Of a stretch of 64,000 nucleotides of DNA, positions 1,292-41,269 are shown in pieces. Location of the stretch: positions 1 to 64,000 of the IMG/VR virus record IMGVR_UViG_3300033066_002329; one strand, given 5' to 3'. The notes below the pieces were generated by a model. That model did no database searches, was not told the origin of the DNA, and worked only from the letters and a program-made list of their open reading frames with translations. The position numbers and the translations under genes were made by a program. How positions within the stretch are numbered: the first letter of the stretch is position 1; each line of letters opens with the position of its first letter. Source of the stretch: a virus (lineage: Duplodnaviria > Caudoviricetes).

Positions 1292-1881
1292 TAACTATTC
1301 AATTTAAATAAACATACACCAACAGCCTTCATGTCTGCAGGCAATTTATCAAATGCATTTTTAAATGTGCTACCAGATGTAATAAAATCATCCATAACAC
1401 ATACAACATTTGTTCCTGTTAGGTCAACATCCAAGTGAAACAAATCACTTATTTTATCTCTGTCTGCTATTTGCAAAGACCTCATTTTGAATGATGGGTC
1501 CAATTTCTTAAACCCATTCTTAATAAATGGTTTATCTATAACACTGGCCATCTCTTCAGTAACAGGACTTGTTGTTTCTACAGACACAATAACTTCTGAG
1601 CTACTCAATTCAGGTATAGAATTAAATCTCATTTGAAATTCTTGTAAAAACATTTTATATGCCTTGTGGTCAAGTTTTAACTCTTCTGATTTACGTTTAA
1701 TAGCAAGTATTGATTCTCTGTTGTTGTAGTAATCAACATTTCCGAATAAAACATATACTGGTCTTCCTGAAATTTCAATTACTTGAATTTTGTCATAAGG
1801 CTCAGTAATTTCTAATGTATTATTTGTTACATTAAAATTCTCATTAATAATTTGTCTTATATACTTTCTTAAAGAGTCCAT
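1291..1881 (-). CDS. phosphoribosyltransferase-fold protein; N-terminal LRKYIRQ motif
   Basis: VCVMDDFITSGSTF PRPP-binding loop. Confidence 0.7.
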   Translation of the reverse strand: MDSLRKYIRQIINENFNVTNNTLEITEPYDKIQVIEISGRPVYVLFGNVDYYNNRESILAIKRKSEELKLDHKAYKMFLQEFQMRFNSIPELSSSEVIVSVETTSPVTEEMASVIDKPFIKNGFKKLDPSFKMRSLQIADRDKISDLFHLDVDLTGTNVVCVMDDFITSGSTFKNAFDKLPADMKAVGVCLFKLNS

Positions 1882-4800
1882 TTTATTCCTGGTATATTCA
1901 TTATTTCGTTTCCTGCCTTACTAAATAATTCAGGAAAATTATTATATTTCAAAGTCTCCCAGTGAATAGGAGTTTTATTATTATTTAATGTAACTGCATG
2001 TGCTTGTCTACCATTAAAATTAATCATTCTACTTAATGAAGCTGCAGTTTTCCAATCTACCTTTAAAGCTTTTAATTGACCATTATCATTTATAATTCTA
2101 AAAATATTAGAATCAAGAACAACCATTCTTGCGGATTTGCCTGGCGTATTATCAACCTTTGTTCTACCTAATTCCATAAGAGAAATTATATGACAAGCAT
2201 ATAAATTTTGTAAACCATTATCTTCTTTCCCTTTAATTAAAACGATGCCTCCATAAGTCCACAAATTTGTATCATTTGATTCTTCAATCACTTCAGACTC
2301 TTTATATAATTTATCATAATCTCTATCAGTTAATCCAAAATCAATTAAAACTAATTCTTCGCCACCATCTCTCTTAACAACTCCATAAGATGAAATTTGC
2401 CCTAAATCTCCAGCTAATGCATCTGTTCCATCCATAAATTCTCTAAGAGAATCTACAAATGAATCATTATATAATCTATCAAGTAAAGGTTTTTGTAAAA
2501 AATATTTTGCCTTTCTGCCATTGTTTTCATCTTGATGATTTATTAAGTATTTTGCAACATCTTCTAAATTAAATGTAGTTAGCATTCTAAATTCAGACTT
2601 ATTAATAGGTCTTGCAAGCTCCATTTCTACCCACAAACCATCTGGATGTGAATCAAAAACTTGAGCAAGAATATTAGAGAAATATGTATGATTTCCTCTA
2701 TCTATTTCTGTATCATTTTGAGTTATACCCTTAGCGTTCTTAGCAAGTTTCAAGACCTTGTTGTCATCAATTTGATAAACTATTCTTGAAGACCCTGAAC
2801 CAAGTCTTTTTAAATTAGCATTGCAATAAGCAACTCTTTCTTTAAATGTCTTAAGAGACTTAAAATGTTCCATATCGAATGAAGAAGGATAATCTTCTTG
2901 AATATTTTCTTCTATTTGTTGACTTTCTATTGCACGTTCATAATAATCAATTAATCCATTCTCTGTTGCAAAATACATTATATTCTCAGGCGCAAAATTA
3001 ACCGTTTCTCTACCTTTAATTTCAATACCATCATAGCCAAGTTTAAGCATTTCTTTTGATATAGAAGTATTTTGTGCAAACTCTCTTGAGTTCTTATAGT
3101 TCTTAAAAATCAAATTTTGTTGAATCCATATTTCTGCAAGATTTGTATCTCTGAAAACCATAGGATTTTTTGGTTTGCCATTAACTACAAAATAAAGTTT
3201 TCCATATTGTTTTGCCATCTTCATATTACTAAGCGGCGCCATATACAAACCTTCTCCGAATCTTGCACCTGAACCATTTTCAGTATCTAATGTACCATCA
3301 GAAGATATTCCTCTAACCATTACATTTTTTCTCTTCCATTTTCTATAATCATCAAGACTATTAGAAAATGCTTCTTGGACCATTCTTCTTGCTTCGGCAA
3401 GTTGAGCATCTCTTGATAACACTTCTTTTTCTCTATTAATACTCTGTTGATTTTTCTTATCAAGATTATCCATTTCCTTATGCCAATAAGCAGAAACTCT
3501 TGCTACAAGCTTTTTCTTAACTGAATCTGGCATTATTCTCCAACCATCAAAATGTATCATAAAATCCTTAACGACTTCAGCAAGAGGCTTCATCGTATAA
3601 TGAAAATAATCAACTCCATCTGGAGAAGTTGCGAAGTCACCCTTTGTAAATCTTGTTTCATTTACAGCCTGAGTAAACCTTGCCCAAATTTCATGTTGAA
3701 GCTTCAAATATTCTTGATGTTTTTTCTTGTTTAATTCAGGGTTTGCATACACCGCCTGTCTTCCGTTGGCCATTGTATGTTTCTTATTATATGCTTTAGT
3801 TTTTCTTGCTTGAAATAATTTTGAATTACTTCTATAGTCATCATAAGCATGTTGTATCTCATGTTCTAATGTAGAATGAAATGCATACCACATTGTAAAA
3901 TATGCATCTCTATAATCATGCTCTTTTTCCTTAGAATAATCTTCAGTTAATTTATTATAAAAGTCACTATTTGGAAATAAAACAATTTCTCTTATTTTAT
4001 CATTATCATATTCAGGCTCTTTGATATGTGTATAATGTCCTAAAACTCCACTATCTCTTGTAGCTCTTGATACCTTAACATATATTTTTGTGTTAACTAA
4101 AAAATCTGAAAGTACTTGGAATTTTTTCGGATTTTCCTGGTACACTTCAAGGAGTCTTACAGGCATTACATAATCAATATATTGATTACTCTTTACCTGC
4201 CTTACAAATGCATCTAAGTTTACCTTTGCAAGATAAATAAGAGTTTCGTTAGCTAAATCTTTAATCTCTTTCACAGAATTATAATCTTCTGCAAGAACTT
4301 CTTCATTCACTGATTTAGATTCAAAGAATTCTCTAACAAGTTTTCTAACCTCATCCAAAGGTTCCATTTCATCTGACTTTGTGTGATTAATAACTTTTAC
4401 AACTCTATCACTAAAAGCAACATATACATTACCTTCAAGCCAAGCTGTTTGACCAATTACACCATTAACATTACAAAAATTGTAAAGAAATTCTGATGCC
4501 TCTTTTTTACCTCCAAGAATAGCCTCTAAATATTGATAAAGACTATCCATTGTCCATAGACCATACTCTTGAATTTCATTTTGAAATTGCTCAGCGCTAT
4601 CTTCATGTTTAGTTTTAATTAATGCATTATAAACATCTTGTGCAAGACTTTCTGAAATTTCTGAATCCCATTCATAAAATGAATCTAAACCTATCAATTT
4701 AACTTCATAGATATTAAAACCAGCATCTTTAAGTTTTCCTATAGATAATTCCTTGGCATATTTTAAGGCTGTACTTGGACTATCTGTAAAATAAAATCCC

Positions 4801-4898
4801 CAACCAAATTTAGAACGAGAATCTCCACTGCCAACTTTTGATAAATCAAAATGGTCAAATTCATAAGGAGAGCCGTGATAAAAATTTTCTAAAATCAT
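1869..4898 (-). CDS. polyvalent protein: ART-like + HExxH metallopeptidase + second ART-like + kinase-like domain
   Basis: FYHGS...GFYFT; LEHEIQHAYDD; VRG...GLYM; LGSGSSRIVY...VLKLAK...LIDFG. Confidence 0.6.
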   Translation of the reverse strand: MILENFYHGSPYEFDHFDLSKVGSGDSRSKFGWGFYFTDSPSTALKYAKELSIGKLKDAGFNIYEVKLIGLDSFYEWDSEISESLAQDVYNALIKTKHEDSAEQFQNEIQEYGLWTMDSLYQYLEAILGGKKEASEFLYNFCNVNGVIGQTAWLEGNVYVAFSDRVVKVINHTKSDEMEPLDEVRKLVREFFESKSVNEEVLAEDYNSVKEIKDLANETLIYLAKVNLDAFVRQVKSNQYIDYVMPVRLLEVYQENPKKFQVLSDFLVNTKIYVKVSRATRDSGVLGHYTHIKEPEYDNDKIREIVLFPNSDFYNKLTEDYSKEKEHDYRDAYFTMWYAFHSTLEHEIQHAYDDYRSNSKLFQARKTKAYNKKHTMANGRQAVYANPELNKKKHQEYLKLQHEIWARFTQAVNETRFTKGDFATSPDGVDYFHYTMKPLAEVVKDFMIHFDGWRIMPDSVKKKLVARVSAYWHKEMDNLDKKNQQSINREKEVLSRDAQLAEARRMVQEAFSNSLDDYRKWKRKNVMVRGISSDGTLDTENGSGARFGEGLYMAPLSNMKMAKQYGKLYFVVNGKPKNPMVFRDTNLAEIWIQQNLIFKNYKNSREFAQNTSISKEMLKLGYDGIEIKGRETVNFAPENIMYFATENGLIDYYERAIESQQIEENIQEDYPSSFDMEHFKSLKTFKERVAYCNANLKRLGSGSSRIVYQIDDNKVLKLAKNAKGITQNDTEIDRGNHTYFSNILAQVFDSHPDGLWVEMELARPINKSEFRMLTTFNLEDVAKYLINHQDENNGRKAKYFLQKPLLDRLYNDSFVDSLREFMDGTDALAGDLGQISSYGVVKRDGGEELVLIDFGLTDRDYDKLYKESEVIEESNDTNLWTYGGIVLIKGKEDNGLQNLYACHIISLMELGRTKVDNTPGKSARMVVLDSNIFRIINDNGQLKALKVDWKTAASLSRMINFNGRQAHAVTLNNNKTPIHWETLKYNNFPELFSKAGNEIMNIPGIKWTL

Positions 4899-4919: not shown

Positions 4920-4953
4920 AAAAAGGAAAAAGGATAGCTAAAAAGCCATCCTT
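4920..4953 (-). terminator. rho-independent terminator after release factor gene
   Basis: AAGGATGGC-TTTTT-AGCTATCCTT hairpin followed by U-rich tract. Confidence 0.6.
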
Positions 4954-4966
4954 CTTCAATTTAAGA

Positions 4967-5647
4967 TTATTTTTTTAACAATTCAAGTTTACCCTTCATA
5001 AACTGTTTTAGACTTGTCTCCTTGCCTGTTTCATGGTCAATAACCCTATCATCTTTCTGACGGTAAGTTCGCTTCTTATCAGACCTCTCTCCACTTCCAA
5101 TTTGAGAATTTCTTTCCTCAGAGGATTCTTCTTCATATCCAGTCCTATAAAAATTATTTACCCTCTTAGTTATTTCCTCTAATGCTTCTTCCTTATTTTT
5201 ATGTTGGTGCCTTCCATCTCTAACAACCTTAATGCCAGTTGAAATGTGGGTAATTACAACACAAGAATCTGTAGTATTTTTATGTTGACCACCATTTCCT
5301 GTTCCACGTGTTGTTTCAATTTTAAGTTCTTCTGGCCTAATAACAATATTTTCATATTGTTTATTTTCCAATACAGCAACTGTTATTGTTGATGTATGAA
5401 CTCTTCCCTTACGTTCTGTTGGAGGTATTCTTTGCCATCTATGGCCACCAGCCTCATTTTTAAAATAATCTTCTACTCCATCTCCAGTTAGTCAGATAGA
5501 TACAAGACCTTCTTTTCAGTGTTCGTTAGACACAATGAAGTTATTATTTTTGGCTGCTTTGATATACATTGCAGCCATGTCCTTTACAAGGAGTTTTGAA
5601 TCTTCACCGCCTTCAGCGCTTCTGATTTCTAATACGATTTTTTCCAT
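4967..5647 (-). CDS. prfA: class I peptide chain release factor, RF1-like, lacking domain 1; two in-frame TGA codons (5516-5518, 5492-5494)
   Basis: Manual translation MEKIVLEIRSAEGGED...EH*KEGLVSI*LTGDG...GGHRWQRIPPTERKGRVHTST joins in frame to the GGQ-containing ORF 4967..5371; PxT motif. Confidence 0.9.
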
Positions 5648-5654
5648 AACTGTT

Positions 5655-6569
5655 TTATTTATTATTTGTAAATATACTACTTTTTTCTAATACTTCAAAA
5701 ATATTATCACAATATTTTATTCTAATAAGTTCAATTTGTTTATCTTTACAATATTCATTTTTAATTTTATCTCGCTTTTGGATATCTTTAAAAGCCTTTT
5801 CTCCTCCCCATTTTTCTATAACTTCAAAATGCTGTCTCCCATCAAATTCAATACAGATATTTTTATCTGGTAAATAAAAATCGAAAGAAAGTTTATTCAT
5901 GTTTTTACAATCTGAAAAGGAATATTGACTTTCATAAGTGATTTTATTTTTAATTAAAAAATTTCGTACTTCTCTTTCACCTTTTGATTCTTTACAAATT
6001 GGACAACCATTTCCCTGTAAGTGATATTTTGGTTTTTGAAAAAAACTACCATGTATTTTACATCTTATTTCTATTTTAGTATGTTGATTTACATACTGAG
6101 AACAGTATGTAAATCTATCTCCATGAATTTTTAAAGCTTTATCAATAAAAATATTATTGTTATGTAAATGAGAACTTGAACTTGCTAATCTTCCACAAGC
6201 AGGACATCCTTTTCCGCTTAAGTGGTCATGTGGACTTTGCAAAAAAGAGTCGTGTAATGGACATTTAATTATAACTTTAGATTCATTATTTATGTATTCT
6301 GCTTTAGAATAATCATATTTTTCACCATGAATTTCAACAACCTTTTCAATGAAATATTTTGTATTTAACTTTCCTGTTCCAGAACAAATTGAACAGCCTT
6401 TTGTATTAATATGGTCATGATAGCGCTGTAAGAATTCTCCATGCTCTGGACAAATAATAGTAATTTTTTGTAAAGAATTTATATATTTTACTTTCGAATA
6501 ATCATACTTATTTCCATGAACTTCTTTACATTTAAAAACTATTTCTGAAGTTGTTAATTTTTTTGCCAT
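5655..6569 (-). CDS. putative homing endonuclease (CPxHG Zn-ribbon repeats + PD-(D/E)XK domain)
   Basis: Repeated C..HG.F.Q....H....GC..C; FDFYLP...IEFDGRQHF. Confidence 0.8.
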   Translation of the reverse strand: MAKKLTTSEIVFKCKEVHGNKYDYSKVKYINSLQKITIICPEHGEFLQRYHDHINTKGCSICSGTGKLNTKYFIEKVVEIHGEKYDYSKAEYINNESKVIIKCPLHDSFLQSPHDHLSGKGCPACGRLASSSSHLHNNNIFIDKALKIHGDRFTYCSQYVNQHTKIEIRCKIHGSFFQKPKYHLQGNGCPICKESKGEREVRNFLIKNKITYESQYSFSDCKNMNKLSFDFYLPDKNICIEFDGRQHFEVIEKWGGEKAFKDIQKRDKIKNEYCKDKQIELIRIKYCDNIFEVLEKSSIFTNNK

Positions 6570-6660
6570 TTTTATTTATAAATATAACAAAAAAAACAAA
6601 AACGACCATTCACAGCCCTTATTTCAAATGTAAATTTATTAAAATAACATATTTATATCT

Positions 6661-7926: not shown

Positions 7927-7944
7927 CAATTTTAAAAACTTGAG

Positions 7945-8842
7945 ATTACGGTTTTTAGTCCCGAACTTTGGTGGGATTATGTATTCCCCATTAGTCTTTA
8001 TCCAGGTATCTTGCGATACCTATTCGGTAGTCCTGATGAGCTAACGGCCATCACTCTTATCAATTGCTTCTATTCTGCAGATACTTCTCCTATACGATGA
8101 TGCCGCACCATATAAAACTTTCACTACAATCCGCCAAACTTTGTGAGTCTAAACGTTCCTAATTCAATCTTTCGAATGTTAGGATATGAAGAACCTTTCG
8201 AAGACAATCGTGTACGGGGTTTTTACTTTGTGTTATTTTAAACATAAATAGTAGCCTTCCAAGGGCAACTTTCCATCTTTCGATAAAAAGGGTTTCATAA
8301 TGCTCGCTAAGAGACGTACCCGTACAGGGTTGGCTCGGTTCCTTTTGAGAACGGAATACCACTACGCCTCTCTGTAGATGCTGACCGCATCCCACTAATT
8401 AATTTTATACTCTCCATTTGCATCATCCCGTCAAAGATAGCCTTAAATGGTGACGTAAGTATAAAACCTTTTTGACTTATAGCACTTGCCTTGCCTGACT
8501 TGCACAATAAATCTCGACTTTCTTATTTAGATATCCCTATCCTCAACACCACGTCATTATACATGATGTATTTCTCTCATCCATTAAGACATTGAGAAAT
8601 ATACTTATCTTTTGCTTGGTTGTCCTATCCAATGTATTACTACACTGACAAGGCGGAAGTTTGCAAACTCCCCTTTATTCACCATTACTGGGTTTATCTT
8701 TCCCCAGATAATTCCTCTTTCGAGAAACTATCTGTTGAGCCACCTTACGATGACTCAGGACATTGTATAACCTTTCGACTATACCAGGCCCCATGCGACC
8801 TGAATTTTTTTCAATATTTTAAAGAACGTTTCGTTTAATTTT
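7945..8842 (-). ncRNA. large (~0.9 kb) structured non-coding RNA, GOLLD/ROOL-like candidate
   Basis: GC-richer, no credible ORF, many GNRA-capped hairpins, own promoter and terminator, next to tRNA-like genes. Confidence 0.65.
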
Positions 8843-8948: not shown

Positions 8949-9030
8949 TGGTAATGGAGGACAACTCATTTCACTTATCCACATTTTTGCGAACATGGTG
9001 CTACTTTACTCTGTCCTTTATTCACTACCA
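8949..9030 (-). ncRNA. small structured RNA candidate
   Basis: Terminal stem TGGTAGTG/CATTACCA and inner stem AGGACA/TGTCCT. Confidence 0.4.
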
Positions 9031-9054
9031 ATATTTTAAAGAACTTATTAAAAA

Positions 9055-9187
9055 AAAGCCACAAGTAAAGCGTAGTGCAAGCGTCTCATGGACTCCTACT
9101 TTTTTCGATACTGATTTTGCATGTCCATCCTTCCTATTTTGTCTGCGCTATTTAAGGACCACCAAAGGCGATTGAACACGTAGCTTT
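9055..9187 (-). ncRNA. rod-like structured RNA candidate
   Basis: AAAGCTACG/TGTGGCTTT terminal stem; ATGGAC/GTCCAT inner stem. Confidence 0.35.
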
Positions 9188-9195
9188 TTAAATTT

Positions 9196-9216
9196 GCCTC
9201 CCAGGAGGGGTTCGAA
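9196..9216 (-). pseudogene. isolated 3-prime tRNA fragment (T-loop + acceptor strand)
   Basis: TTCGAAC-CCCTC-CTGGGAG-G at edge of endonuclease gene. Confidence 0.45.
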
Positions 9217-9247
9217 AATTTATTTTATATTTATATATAAATTATTT

Positions 9248-9928
9248 ATGAAATTACTTTACACAGAACAACAGTTTATACAAGCAAGAGGAAAAGAAGA
9301 ATTACCTTTAAAATGCTATTGTTGTTCAAAAACTTTTTATCTATCAAAAAAAAGAATTAAAGATTGTCTTAATCCTAAAGAAAATAGACAAGGAAAATAT
9401 TGTTCTCCAAAATGTCAATCCGATTCTACAATCAAATATTCAATTTTAAATTGTTTAGTGTGCAAAAAAGAATTTAAAAAAACGCAATCTGAAATTAAAA
9501 AAACTGTATCAGGTAATCATTTTTGCTCTAAATCTTGCTCAGCAACTTATAATAATACTCATAAGACAACTGGCACAAGACGCTCAAAACTGGAAAAATA
9601 TCTTGAAGAACAACTTATCACTCTTTATCCAAATCTATCTATTGATTTCAACAAAAAAGATACAATCAATTCTGAACTTGACATTTATATTCCATCGCTA
9701 AAACTTGCATTTGAACTAAATGGTATATATCATTATGAGCCAATTCATGGCCAATGTAAATTAAGTCAAACACAAAATAATGACCAACGCAAATTTCAAG
9801 CTTGTGCAGAAAATGGTATTTCACTATGTATTATAGATACCTCTAAGCAAAAGTACTTTAAAGAAAGTACCAGCCAAGAATTTCTAAATATCATAATTAA
9901 TATCATAAATAATAAATCAAAGAACTAA
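9248..9928 (+). CDS. PD-(D/E)XK homing-type endonuclease antisense to tRNA cluster; paralog of 41940..42605
   Basis: Cys-rich N-terminus; RRSKLE...ELDIYIPSLKLAFELNG; likely start ATG 9248. Confidence 0.8.
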   Translation: MKLLYTEQQFIQARGKEELPLKCYCCSKTFYLSKKRIKDCLNPKENRQGKYCSPKCQSDSTIKYSILNCLVCKKEFKKTQSEIKKTVSGNHFCSKSCSATYNNTHKTTGTRRSKLEKYLEEQLITLYPNLSIDFNKKDTINSELDIYIPSLKLAFELNGIYHYEPIHGQCKLSQTQNNDQRKFQACAENGISLCIIDTSKQKYFKESTSQEFLNIIINIINNKSKN

Positions 9929-9929
9929 G

Positions 9930-10003
9930 CTCTCCTGACAGGACTCGAACCTGCAACCTCTGATGTTAGGGCACCAGCCGTCTACCAGTTGAAATACAGG
10001 AGA
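9930..10003 (-). tRNA. atypical tRNA-Arg(CCT)-like, 8-nt anticodon loop GCCCTAAC
   Basis: Acceptor TCTCCTG/CAGGAGA; T-arm GCAGG TTCGAGT CCTGT; weak D-stem. Confidence 0.55.
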
Positions 10004-39855: not shown

Positions 39856-40584
39856 TTAAGAGAACTTCTCAATCATTTTACGAGAAATCTCCTCCTTAAG
39901 TTGCAAATTTGTTTCATATTTATCAATTTCTACACCTAAATGCCTGGCAATCAAATGAATATTTTTTGTTCCATCCTCATTCATATTTGCCTTTCTAATC
40001 TTTTTATCATAATCTTCATCAAATAGATAAAGTACATGCTTTTCTCCTGCGGACTTAGACATTTTCTTTGTTGGGTCTATAAGTGACATAACCTTGTCTG
40101 CATCTCCAAATTCATATTTATAATATTTTCCATCAACTCTTTTAGATATGTCATTACAAAGGTCTATATGAGCAACTTGGTCTTTACCAACAATAATTAC
40201 ATCTGGGTCATTCATCATAATATCTGCAGCCATAAGTACAGGATATAACAATAGGCCCATATCAAATTTAACATCATCTTTTTTATCCTTGTATTGAGGC
40301 ATCTTAACAAGAGTAGGTAAACTAAGTTTGCAACATAATTTAAAAAAAAGTTCAGTATATTCTGGAGTTTGTCTTTTAATGTTTTTACAGCCAAGTCTAA
40401 TTAATTCTTGCTCTGTTACATCTGAATAATTATCAGTTGTTAGAGCATGATAATTTGCTATAAGAAATGTTACATCGTGACCCTGCGCTTGAAGCTCAAG
40501 TCCTCTCTTAATGCATCCCAAATAGTTTCCGATATGAAGTCGTCCTGTAGGTTGAATCCCAATAAGATATTTTTTTGTTTCCAT
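39856..40584 (-). CDS. trpS: tryptophanyl-tRNA synthetase (short, 242 aa)
   Basis: GIQPTGRLHIGNYLG; YPVLMAADI; VGKDQ; KMSKS. Confidence 0.88.
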   Translation of the reverse strand: METKKYLIGIQPTGRLHIGNYLGCIKRGLELQAQGHDVTFLIANYHALTTDNYSDVTEQELIRLGCKNIKRQTPEYTELFFKLCCKLSLPTLVKMPQYKDKKDDVKFDMGLLLYPVLMAADIMMNDPDVIIVGKDQVAHIDLCNDISKRVDGKYYKYEFGDADKVMSLIDPTKKMSKSAGEKHVLYLFDEDYDKKIRKANMNEDGTKNIHLIARHLGVEIDKYETNLQLKEEISRKMIEKFS

Positions 40585-41027
40585 GATAATGTTTTTAATT
40601 TTGTTTCATTTAAATTTTCTTCACAAAAACCGATAAGTGGTTTTGTTTTAATCCAAGAGTCTTTATCAGAAAGACCTTCAAGAGAAGAATCATCATCAAT
40701 TAAAATAAAATTATCAAAATTATTTTCAGCAATAAATTTTTCAAATTCTTCTTTTCTACTTATATAACCATAAATAGGAACGATACCGTCAATTTGTTTT
40801 TTGATATTTCTATTTTTAAATATTTGATTTAACTCTTCATTTTTTTTTGTTCTTCTCCTATCAGAGATAAGCCATAATTCAAAATTTAAATCATCTGTAA
40901 GCTCATTAAAATTATCTACAGCTATAGAGTTGAATTTTGAATAACCATCGCTTTCTAATTCATCTCTACGCCAAGAAGGAGTTGTAATAAGAACTCCATC
41001 CAAGTCTAATATAATTACATTTTTCAT
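40470..41027 (-). CDS. HAD phosphatase, Swiss-Army-knife RNA-repair type
   Basis: IILDLDGVL...ILIDDD; likely start ATG 41027. Confidence 0.7.
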   Translation of the reverse strand: MKNVIILDLDGVLITTPSWRRDELESDGYSKFNSIAVDNFNELTDDLNFELWLISDRRRTKKNEELNQIFKNRNIKKQIDGIVPIYGYISRKEEFEKFIAENNFDNFILIDDDSSLEGLSDKDSWIKTKPLIGFCEENLNETKLKTLSWKQKNILLGFNLQDDFISETIWDALREDLSFKRRVTM

Positions 41028-41030
41028 TTG

Positions 41031-41104
41031 CACTAGCGGCAGGAATCGAACCTGCCCACGGAGATTTGGAGTTTCCATCGCCTACCCTTGGGACATTCGC
41101 TAGT
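41031..41104 (-). tRNA. tRNA-Trp(CCA), atypical D and anticodon stems
   Basis: Loop CTCCAAA, G73, A30:C40 mismatch. Confidence 0.8.
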
Positions 41105-41198
41105 ATGTGATGATTCTCATTACTATTGAATCATCATTGAATTGCATCCTTCCTTTCGTAAGTGAGTAAGAGATTTAAAAATCTCAGCAATTCTATTG

Positions 41199-41269
41199 CA
41201 CGCCTGGACAGATTCGAACTGCCATCAAAAGTTTTGGAGACTTCTATTCTACCATTGAACTACAGACGT
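41199..41269 (-). tRNA. tRNA-Trp(CCA)
   Basis: Canonical, loop CTCCAAA, G73. Confidence 0.9.

Follow-up and report, generated by a model that had tools for sequence, protein, structure and literature searches.

A short release factor gene interrupted by two UGA codons

The stretch of DNA considered here (the window) comprises positions 1 to 64,000 of IMG/VR virus record IMGVR_UViG_3300033066_002329, which is a single contig (G000) of 88,943 bp and 29% GC. A gene for a short RF1-type class-I release factor made up of domains 2-4 occupies positions 4967..5647 of its minus strand. The gene runs in one frame from ATG 5647 to the TAA at 4967-4969, and this single reading of 226 codons has two TGA codons inside it. 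As the first-pass annotation had remarked, the list of open reading frames under translation table 11 shows just a 134-aa product with the GGQ half of the protein at this locus (4967-5371); the public gene call (P0055) is likewise a 134-aa fragment.

The earlier proposal of an RF1-like gene that starts at ATG 5647, stays in one frame and covers domains 2-4 is borne out by profile and structure matches that span the stops. Pfam PCRF covers residues 3-90 of the read-through protein (E 2e-20), extending across both stops, and Pfam RF-1 covers residues 100-205 (E 3.5e-24). The NCBIfam prfA model (NF001859) aligns residues 3-223 with profile positions 105-333 (of 347) at 214 bits, and RF1 structures in the PDB match residues 2-222 (E 5e-44). 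These NCBIfam scores lie below the equivalog cut-offs (214 vs 400 bits for NF001859, 209 vs 423 for TIGR00019); the corresponding score for prfB is 116 bits. Since the prfA match begins only at profile position 105 and just 13 codons are open 5' of the ATG, domain 1 (~105 residues in RF1) is absent.

An AlphaFold model made from the family alignment has a mean pLDDT of 89.7 and superposes on ribosome-bound RF1 with a TM score of 0.88-0.90 and an rmsd of 2.0-2.3 Å (39% identity); RF2 superposes on it less well than RF1 does (~30% identity). The modelled fold is that of an intact RF1 domain 2-4 module. In lacking domain 1 the protein resembles another class-I release factor homologue, PrfH (RF-H, paired with RtcB2). 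It differs from PrfH in its low score against the prfH profile (69.9 bits; cut-off 166.65, TIGR03072), in a structural match that is weaker than that to RF1 (TM 0.65, 22% identity), in keeping the PxT motif, and in having no RtcB neighbour (the genes next to it encode a DUF4379 protein and an ART-PolyVal protein).

The stop specificity of a release factor is set by its tripeptide, PxT as opposed to SPF. The tripeptide here is PPT (residues 75-77; 5417..5425, minus strand), an RF1-type PxT motif that had been read from the outset as a sign of UAA/UAG specificity. In the family alignment A3, P75, T77 and E78 never vary and P76 hardly does; the cellular RF2 matches of the same survey carry SPF. 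The catalytic GGQ motif of domain 3 (residues 119-121; 5285..5293, minus strand) is invariant in alignments A1 and A3. PPT together with the conserved Gln and Thr around the motif predicts a factor that reads UAA and UAG and not UGA. The family tally is 66 PPT to seven SPT, the latter at loci L077, L089, L103, L111, L128, L145 and L153. SPT is a hybrid of the RF1 PxT and the RF2 SPF and has no clear tie to the type of internal stop; the tripeptide rule would predict that it reads a wider set of stop codons.

The two in-frame stops, which can be thought of as gates on expression of the full-length protein, are read directly in the DNA at the codons that the first-pass annotation gave for them. 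Gate 1 is codon 44 (5516..5518, minus strand; CAC TGA AAA, a UGA-A context) and gate 2 is codon 52 (5492..5494, minus strand; ATC TGA CTA, a UGA-C context). In the AlphaFold model both gate residues sit in the domain 2 β-hairpin formed by strands 38-45 and 48-55, that of gate 1 at the end of the first strand, adjoining the hairpin turn, and that of gate 2 in the middle of the second. Both gates are in frame, with no CUU-stop-C +1 frameshift heptamer at either. An SD-like stimulator 3 nt upstream of the gate was found neither in the window nor in the clade of relatives with a frameshift cassette at codon 54 (see below). A search for conserved RNA structure or a SECIS element after either UGA gave 0 consensus pairs over 20 sequences, and the window's own fold after the stops has z = -1.66. 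Selenocysteine at the gates was rejected on the lack of conserved structure after the stops and on the variation in both position and kind of gate.

Genome context

The gene immediately upstream (5655..6569, minus strand) encodes a 304-aa zinc-finger protein with DUF4379 that is homing-endonuclease-like. It ends 7 nt before the release factor start, so that the two genes are probably co-transcribed. An intrinsic-terminator-like hairpin with a T-rich tail (4926..4957, minus strand) lies 10 nt past the release factor stop; it has 14 pairs and a 4-nt loop, and is the one site found against 0.4 expected in shuffled sequence. A scan for sigma-70 promoters gave nothing above chance. The TATTTAT motif noted earlier upstream of the operon is indeed present (6578-6584, minus strand), but the window holds 87 copies of it and as a promoter signal it is not significant. 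A 12-kb piece of the window had no megablast match among phage records.

Several other features lie close by. Directly past the terminator, the gene at 1869-4898 (minus strand) encodes a protein of 1009 aa whose N-terminus is an ART-PolyVal ADP-ribosyltransferase domain. A GOLLD RNA lies at 7937-8372, 2.3 kb upstream of the release factor gene on the same strand (Rfam 156.5 bits against a gathering score of 150; full length, 1-416). Zinc-finger, homing-endonuclease-like genes occur twice, at 5655-6569 (minus strand) directly 5' of the release factor gene and at 9176-9928 (plus strand) beside an odd tRNA. The second of these overlaps a candidate for another readthrough gene (8954-9928, plus strand), which was rejected: its homology, to a homing-endonuclease-like gene, lies only past the TGA and starts from an internal Met.

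All the long ORFs of the contig are free of in-frame TGA, the release factor gene being the sole TGA-interrupted gene. With standard-code ORFs covering the contig and no second gene of this kind, genome-wide use of code 4 or 25 was discarded. The 84 contig genes of at least 100 aa end in TAA (76), TAG (7) or TGA (1), and the lone TGA runs straight into TAATAA; relative to TAG, TGA is scarcer as a terminator than base composition would predict (p = 0.009). SD-like motifs precede 3 of 83 genes of G000, in keeping with a host whose translation does not depend on SD pairing. Together with what is reported of huge-phage hosts (Al-Shayeb 2020, PMC7162821), this lack suggests that the host is Bacteroidota-like.

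Gates in related phages

The closest phage records are uncultured huge phages of 595-735 kb, with 42-46% identity. LR745206 (W01) has TGA at both window sites, LR756504 at site 1 alone, LR756502 at site 2 alone, and LR756501 at site 2 and at another site further upstream; one member of higher GC has no gate stop. DNA-level searches of viral and metagenome contigs, sorted by tblastn and by direct reading of the DNA, brought in 160 further loci. Among 83 unique short phage release factors (221-232 aa), 73 are gated, with the gate within codons ~37-55. Readthrough types comprise one in-frame TGA (27 unique proteins), two in-frame TGAs (18), TGA and TAG both in frame (2), in-frame TAG only (2), and in-frame TAG with a stray TAA (1). 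Frameshift types comprise a +1 shift at a TAG cassette (CTT TAG C, in one case TTT TAG C; 11), at CTT TGA C or CTT TGA A (9), and at CTT TAA C (1); TGA is combined with a CTT TAG C frameshift in 2 unique proteins, and 10 have no gate. At a cassette, a one-base skip yields the full-length protein with PPT and GGQ intact. Cassette carriers include L084-L089, L110, L121-L146 and others, and a TGA occurs together with a +1 cassette at three loci, L088, L103 and L143.

The cassettes are of two sorts. The one at codon 38 has GGAGG, GGGAG or GGGGG 3 nt upstream, as in prfB, and its loci are of higher GC, with SD motifs at one third of genes. The one at codon 54 (TGT CTT TAG C) is without an SD element and occurs in SD-poor phages like that of the window. 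In full-length cellular RF1 (PxT) and RF2 (SPF), which have 110-170 upstream codons for domain 1, the gate region is ordinary.

A quick maximum-likelihood tree (IQ-TREE) brings the gated genes together in a single 78-row clade (SH-aLRT 98), of whose rows 77 are gated; ungated short forms and cellular factors fall outside it. Within this clade there have been at least 5-8 switches between readthrough and frameshift. The window's gene groups (support 100) with three relatives, one of them of type TGA+TGA and the other two of type TGA+TAG. Save for the one stray TAA, in-frame stops are confined to columns 50-71 of the 284 in the alignment. Site 1 is also TGA in L039/L062, L040-42, L061, L001, L002, L090, L095, L098 and L099. 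The gate 2 column is a stop in 39 of 95 rows, reading TAG in L040-42/L063-65 and L132; members of the frameshift clade encode Cys there, and their CTT TAG C follows one codon further on. Homologs thus keep the stops, and neither gate column is a Trp column in relatives: other residues are mainly E (34), D (9) and S (8) at gate 1 and C (12), E (7), L (6), S (5), K (5), T (5) and R (4) at gate 2. A W is printed at the gate sites of public full-length calls, all of them from short contigs, which looks like a gene caller picking code 4.

That two separate in-frame stops speak against sequencing error, as first argued, is now supported by recurrence. Identical double-TGA proteins were assembled from five samples (L073, L074, L075, L082 and L083), and the same stops are seen in independent assemblies at 42-80% protein identity, which argues against chance as well as error.

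Loci L078 and L080 (454-663) additionally have a partial second copy of the release factor N-terminus ~1 kb upstream of the full gene. It covers approximately codons 1-75 and has TGA at both gate positions.

Selection and stop context

The pN/pS ratio over 160 pairs is 0.27 for codons 1-37, which lie 5' of all gates, and 0.29 for codons 57-226; comparison of the window with its closest relative, L062, gives values of 0.15, 0.08 and 0.23. Low ratios on either side of the gates imply that both parts of the gene are translated and constrained. The TGAs persist even though synonymous sites are near saturation (pS ~0.68). The decay of the gene among stop-free homologs that was named in advance as a possible refutation is therefore not what is seen: homologs are gated, and purifying selection acts on both sides.

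The UGA-A and UGA-C contexts singled out in the window prove to be family-wide, the next base being A or C for all 67 of 67 in-frame TGAs, where the null expectation is 0.54 (the share of family sense codons starting with A or C). Terminating TGAs of W01 are followed by C in 0 of 124 cases. A backup TAA or TAG within 5 codons follows 59% of its TGA terminators vs 34% of its TAA terminators (p = 6e-7), a pattern that suggests unreliable termination at UGA in the course of infection. TGA nevertheless ends 18% of the genes of W01, which shares both gates with the window, and avoidance of TGA terminators is therefore not a general rule.

TGA- or TAG-joined genes apart from the release factor gene were found neither in G000 nor in the complete LR745206. 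The two genomes have ~21 detectable genes in common, and tblastn found no real stop-crossing alignment. A codon-usage scan of W01 gave 24 TGA-joined candidates, all of which looked like low-complexity antisense shadows and were set aside.

The interchange of TGA, TAG and +1 cassettes implies that selection preserves a stop for its function as a stop and not for the residue that might be inserted at it. The stops are very probably a programmed, selected gate on expression, an in-frame equivalent of the frameshift gate of prfB.

A proposed readthrough gate in competition with RF2

The explanation preferred here, with moderate confidence, is that the stops constitute a readthrough gate in competition with RF2 on a functional RF1-type factor. 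Full-length release factor would be made only when ribosomes pass both UGAs (UGA-A and UGA-C) by near-cognate decoding; termination at the gates by host RF2 would release harmless peptides of 43 or 51 residues. UGA-C is a weak termination context, and each stop, in the ribosomal A site, would sit in a context of slow termination. In this way the gates would hold the factor at a low level as long as termination at UGA works well, and allow it to build up as RF2 activity per ribosome drops; two gates would multiply, giving a low basal level and a steep response. RF1 and RF2 both read UAA. Since this shared codon ends 90% of the phage's genes, extra phage RF1 would free RF2 and so restore UGA termination, closing a feedback loop. 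Such feedback could only be indirect, because a factor of the predicted RF1 specificity cannot itself read UGA. A sensor of weak UGA termination would fit all of the findings; for the RF2-sensing logic specifically, the balance tips only gently in favour, the competition with RF2, the feedback loop and the UAA/UAG specificity of the factor each being an inferred element of it. With two successive UGAs to pass, the yield could be very low if nothing boosts readthrough, and no booster was found. The contig is a fragment (89 kb, where relatives have 300-735 kb), so that the rest of the genome could encode a suppressor tRNA or an inhibitor of RF2.

A possible but doubtful reading turns the gate into part of a takeover by release factor swap: the phage, having cleared its own gene ends of TGA (1 of 84), would disable or outrun RF2, host genes ending in UGA would be misread, and the double-UGA lock would delay RF1. 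If this were true, phage RF1 would be made only after RF2 collapse and the infected cell would run on UAA and UAG alone, without a suppressor tRNA. Across the family, UGA gates would then report on RF2 activity and UAG gates on that of RF1, with CUU UAG C as the first natural autoregulatory frameshift of an RF1.

Other explanations of the gates

The gates might instead be a timed switch, with the UGAs read once the phage makes a dedicated decoder, either a UCA tRNA encoded in sequence that lies beyond the contig or the tRNA-Trp(CCA) copies of the phage together with its TrpRS-like enzyme. RF1 would then take part in a change of genetic code, as in the TGA-recoded Jade phages, whose module combines a suppressor tRNA, TrpRS and RF1 (Borges et al., preprint 10.1101/2021.08.26.457843). 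The resemblance lies in a phage RF1 that occurs with a TrpRS-like gene and is linked to UGA decoding, and the incompleteness of the contig leaves room for a suppressor, but on the whole this is unlikely. The Jade module is itself written in the standard code and the Jade TGAs lie in late genes, whereas the TGAs here are in the RF1 gene only, with no second gene that has an in-frame TGA and so nothing else to switch on. No UCA-anticodon tRNA was found on the contig (two Rfam-only tRNAs, which are Gly-GCC and Asp-GTC, included), among the 59 tRNAs of the fully scanned LR745206, or in the fetched tRNA-cluster regions of W02-W04, three other complete huge phages. This, with gate columns that are not Trp columns, also tells against the early suggestion that UGA is probably decoded as Trp.

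The window does hold two tRNA-Trp(CCA) genes (41030-41269) and, adjoining them, a gene for a 249-aa TrpRS/TyrRS-class synthetase (39856-40605, minus strand). The Pfam match of the TrpRS-like protein stops at profile position 255 of 292, so that the protein may lack the C-terminal part that binds the anticodon. (The idea that the TrpRS is split or recoded was rejected: the ORF ends in TAA followed by more stops, and the downstream ORF is unrelated.) One tRNA-Trp(CCA) copy has a U11-A24 D-stem pair, which we take to be the configuration produced by the Hirsh UGA-suppressor mutation, but this pair is common among tRNAs generally.

Alternatively, the stops could be a plain attenuator that holds a potentially toxic release factor at a low, constitutive level and senses nothing. 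Release factor overexpression lowers fitness (PMC12421855), the early position of the gates keeps aborted products short, and any kind of gate (TGA, TAG, TAA, frameshift) seems acceptable. A weak start or promoter would nevertheless serve equally well, without wasted ribosomes, and RF-specific stops in weak contexts, together with RF-dependent prfB-type cassettes, point to responsiveness. Any stop gate responds kinetically to release factor concentration, so that such an attenuator, which we think improbable, differs from the RF2-competing gate mainly in purpose.

It is very improbable that the gates sense the host's genetic code, with phage RF1 made only in hosts without RF2, the phage living in bacteria that read UGA as sense (code 4 or 25) or in both types of host. 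G000 is of low GC and avoids TGA both inside genes and at their ends (1/84), in a manner that resembles code-11-compatible phages of code-25 bacteria. Against this, the CTT TGA C +1 cassettes of relatives interleaved with the UGA-gated genes need poor decoding of UGA, W01 combines the same gates with its many TGA gene ends, the relatives are 300-735-kb phages with predicted Bacteroidetes hosts (PMC7162821), and SD-poor starts fit Bacteroidota.

Scarcely credible, finally, is a decaying pseudogene, an assembly error or a pair of selenocysteine codons, as the broken look of the gene under table 11 and the 12 Cys rows at gate 2 (Cys/Sec pairs mark selenoproteins) might suggest, in the face of purifying selection on either side of stops that recur across many independent assemblies, vary in position, swap with TAG and frameshift cassettes, share columns with E, L, S, K, T, R and D, and are followed by no conserved hairpin (0 consensus pairs; z = -1.66).

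Comparison with other gated release factor genes

Gating of a release factor gene by a stop is a textbook example of control for bacterial RF2, and a single giant-virus case has been described. In the large and diverse family of phage RF1-type genes considered here, gating is near-universal; a full-text literature search found no description of stop-gated RF1-type genes in phages. The huge-phage paper, for which genes were called with code 11, has RF1 and RF2 in its list of phage genes and makes no mention of internal stops (PMC7162821).

The analogies with prfB and with giant-virus release factors, drawn in the first-pass annotation, are apt because relatives of the window carry prfB-type +1 cassettes (CTT TAG C, CTT TGA C) at the very place of the gates. 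A survey from 2025, which covered more than 12,000 bacterial genomes, reports programmed frameshifting as shown for prfB and not for prfA, recorded 34 frameshifted prfA genes without conserved elements, and found TAG in 0 of 8,164 bacterial prfB motifs (PMC12421855). As in prfB, an internal stop early in a class-I release factor gene ties yield to termination efficiency. The UGA-C context of prfB is that of gate 2, and relatives share its heptamer CTT TGA C, some with GGAGG, GGGAG or GGGGG 3 nt upstream. Unlike prfB, the window's gene calls for in-frame readthrough, twice, and no frameshift; its gate falls within domain 2 instead of domain 1; its factor is RF1-type and predicted not to read its own gate codon; and the cassettes of many relatives use TAG. 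Relatives with TAG gates would, to judge from their sequences, read their own gate codon, which is a prfB-like feature.

The class-I release factor gene of Mimivirus (R726) and Megavirus (mg280) requires one frameshift and one readthrough, both experimentally shown (Jeudy et al. 2012, PMC3521657). There too a viral release factor is made through two internal stops and is the genome's only recoded gene, and the mix of frameshift and readthrough has its counterpart here in relatives L088, L103 and L143. The giant-virus factor is of eukaryotic/archaeal eRF1 type and belongs to viruses of amoebae, whereas the window's is of bacterial RF1 type and would need two readthroughs.

The gates of this family are interchangeable (UGA or UAG readthrough, CUU UAG C, CUU UGA C with or without SD element), and the presence of the SD element matches host translation style. 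The series is natural material for the question of how recoding signals arise and replace each other. The gates can be regarded as compact natural sensors of RF1 or RF2 activity, and as a clue to how huge phages manage termination in infection. There is also a practical side. Public calls truncate these release factor genes or render their TGAs as Trp under an apparently wrong code, so that the factor is systematically mis-annotated, and short contigs with a gated release factor gene may pass for code-4 sequences.

tRNA genes near the release factor gene

A tRNA-like gene lies in the window at 9930-10003 (minus strand; Rfam 40 bits), called 'Arg|Pyl' by ARAGORN. Its anticodon loop, CCCTAA, is of 6 nt, or of 8 nt if the closing G-C pair is opened. 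It aligns poorly with the canonical CUA tRNAs of relatives. These amber-suppressor-type tRNAs (loop CU-CUA-AA) lie ~0.9-1.1 kb downstream of double-TGA release factor genes on the same strand, at L066, L068, L070, L071, L076, L077, L079 and L142, and one is also found at L227:10585-10738 (LR756501). The arrangement pairs a UAG-reading tRNA with a factor predicted to read UAG. Partial recoding of TAG, an idea that these neighbours raise, was dismissed, as there are no in-frame TAG genes in G000 or W01.

In many relatives (flanks of L066-L146) the release factor gene lies inside a tRNA array, in which one or two same-strand tRNA(CAT) genes precede it by 46-400 nt. At L119 a tRNA-Trp(CCA) begins 9 nt past the release factor gene, and at L121 and L146 a tRNA-Cys(GCA) lies just 5' of it.
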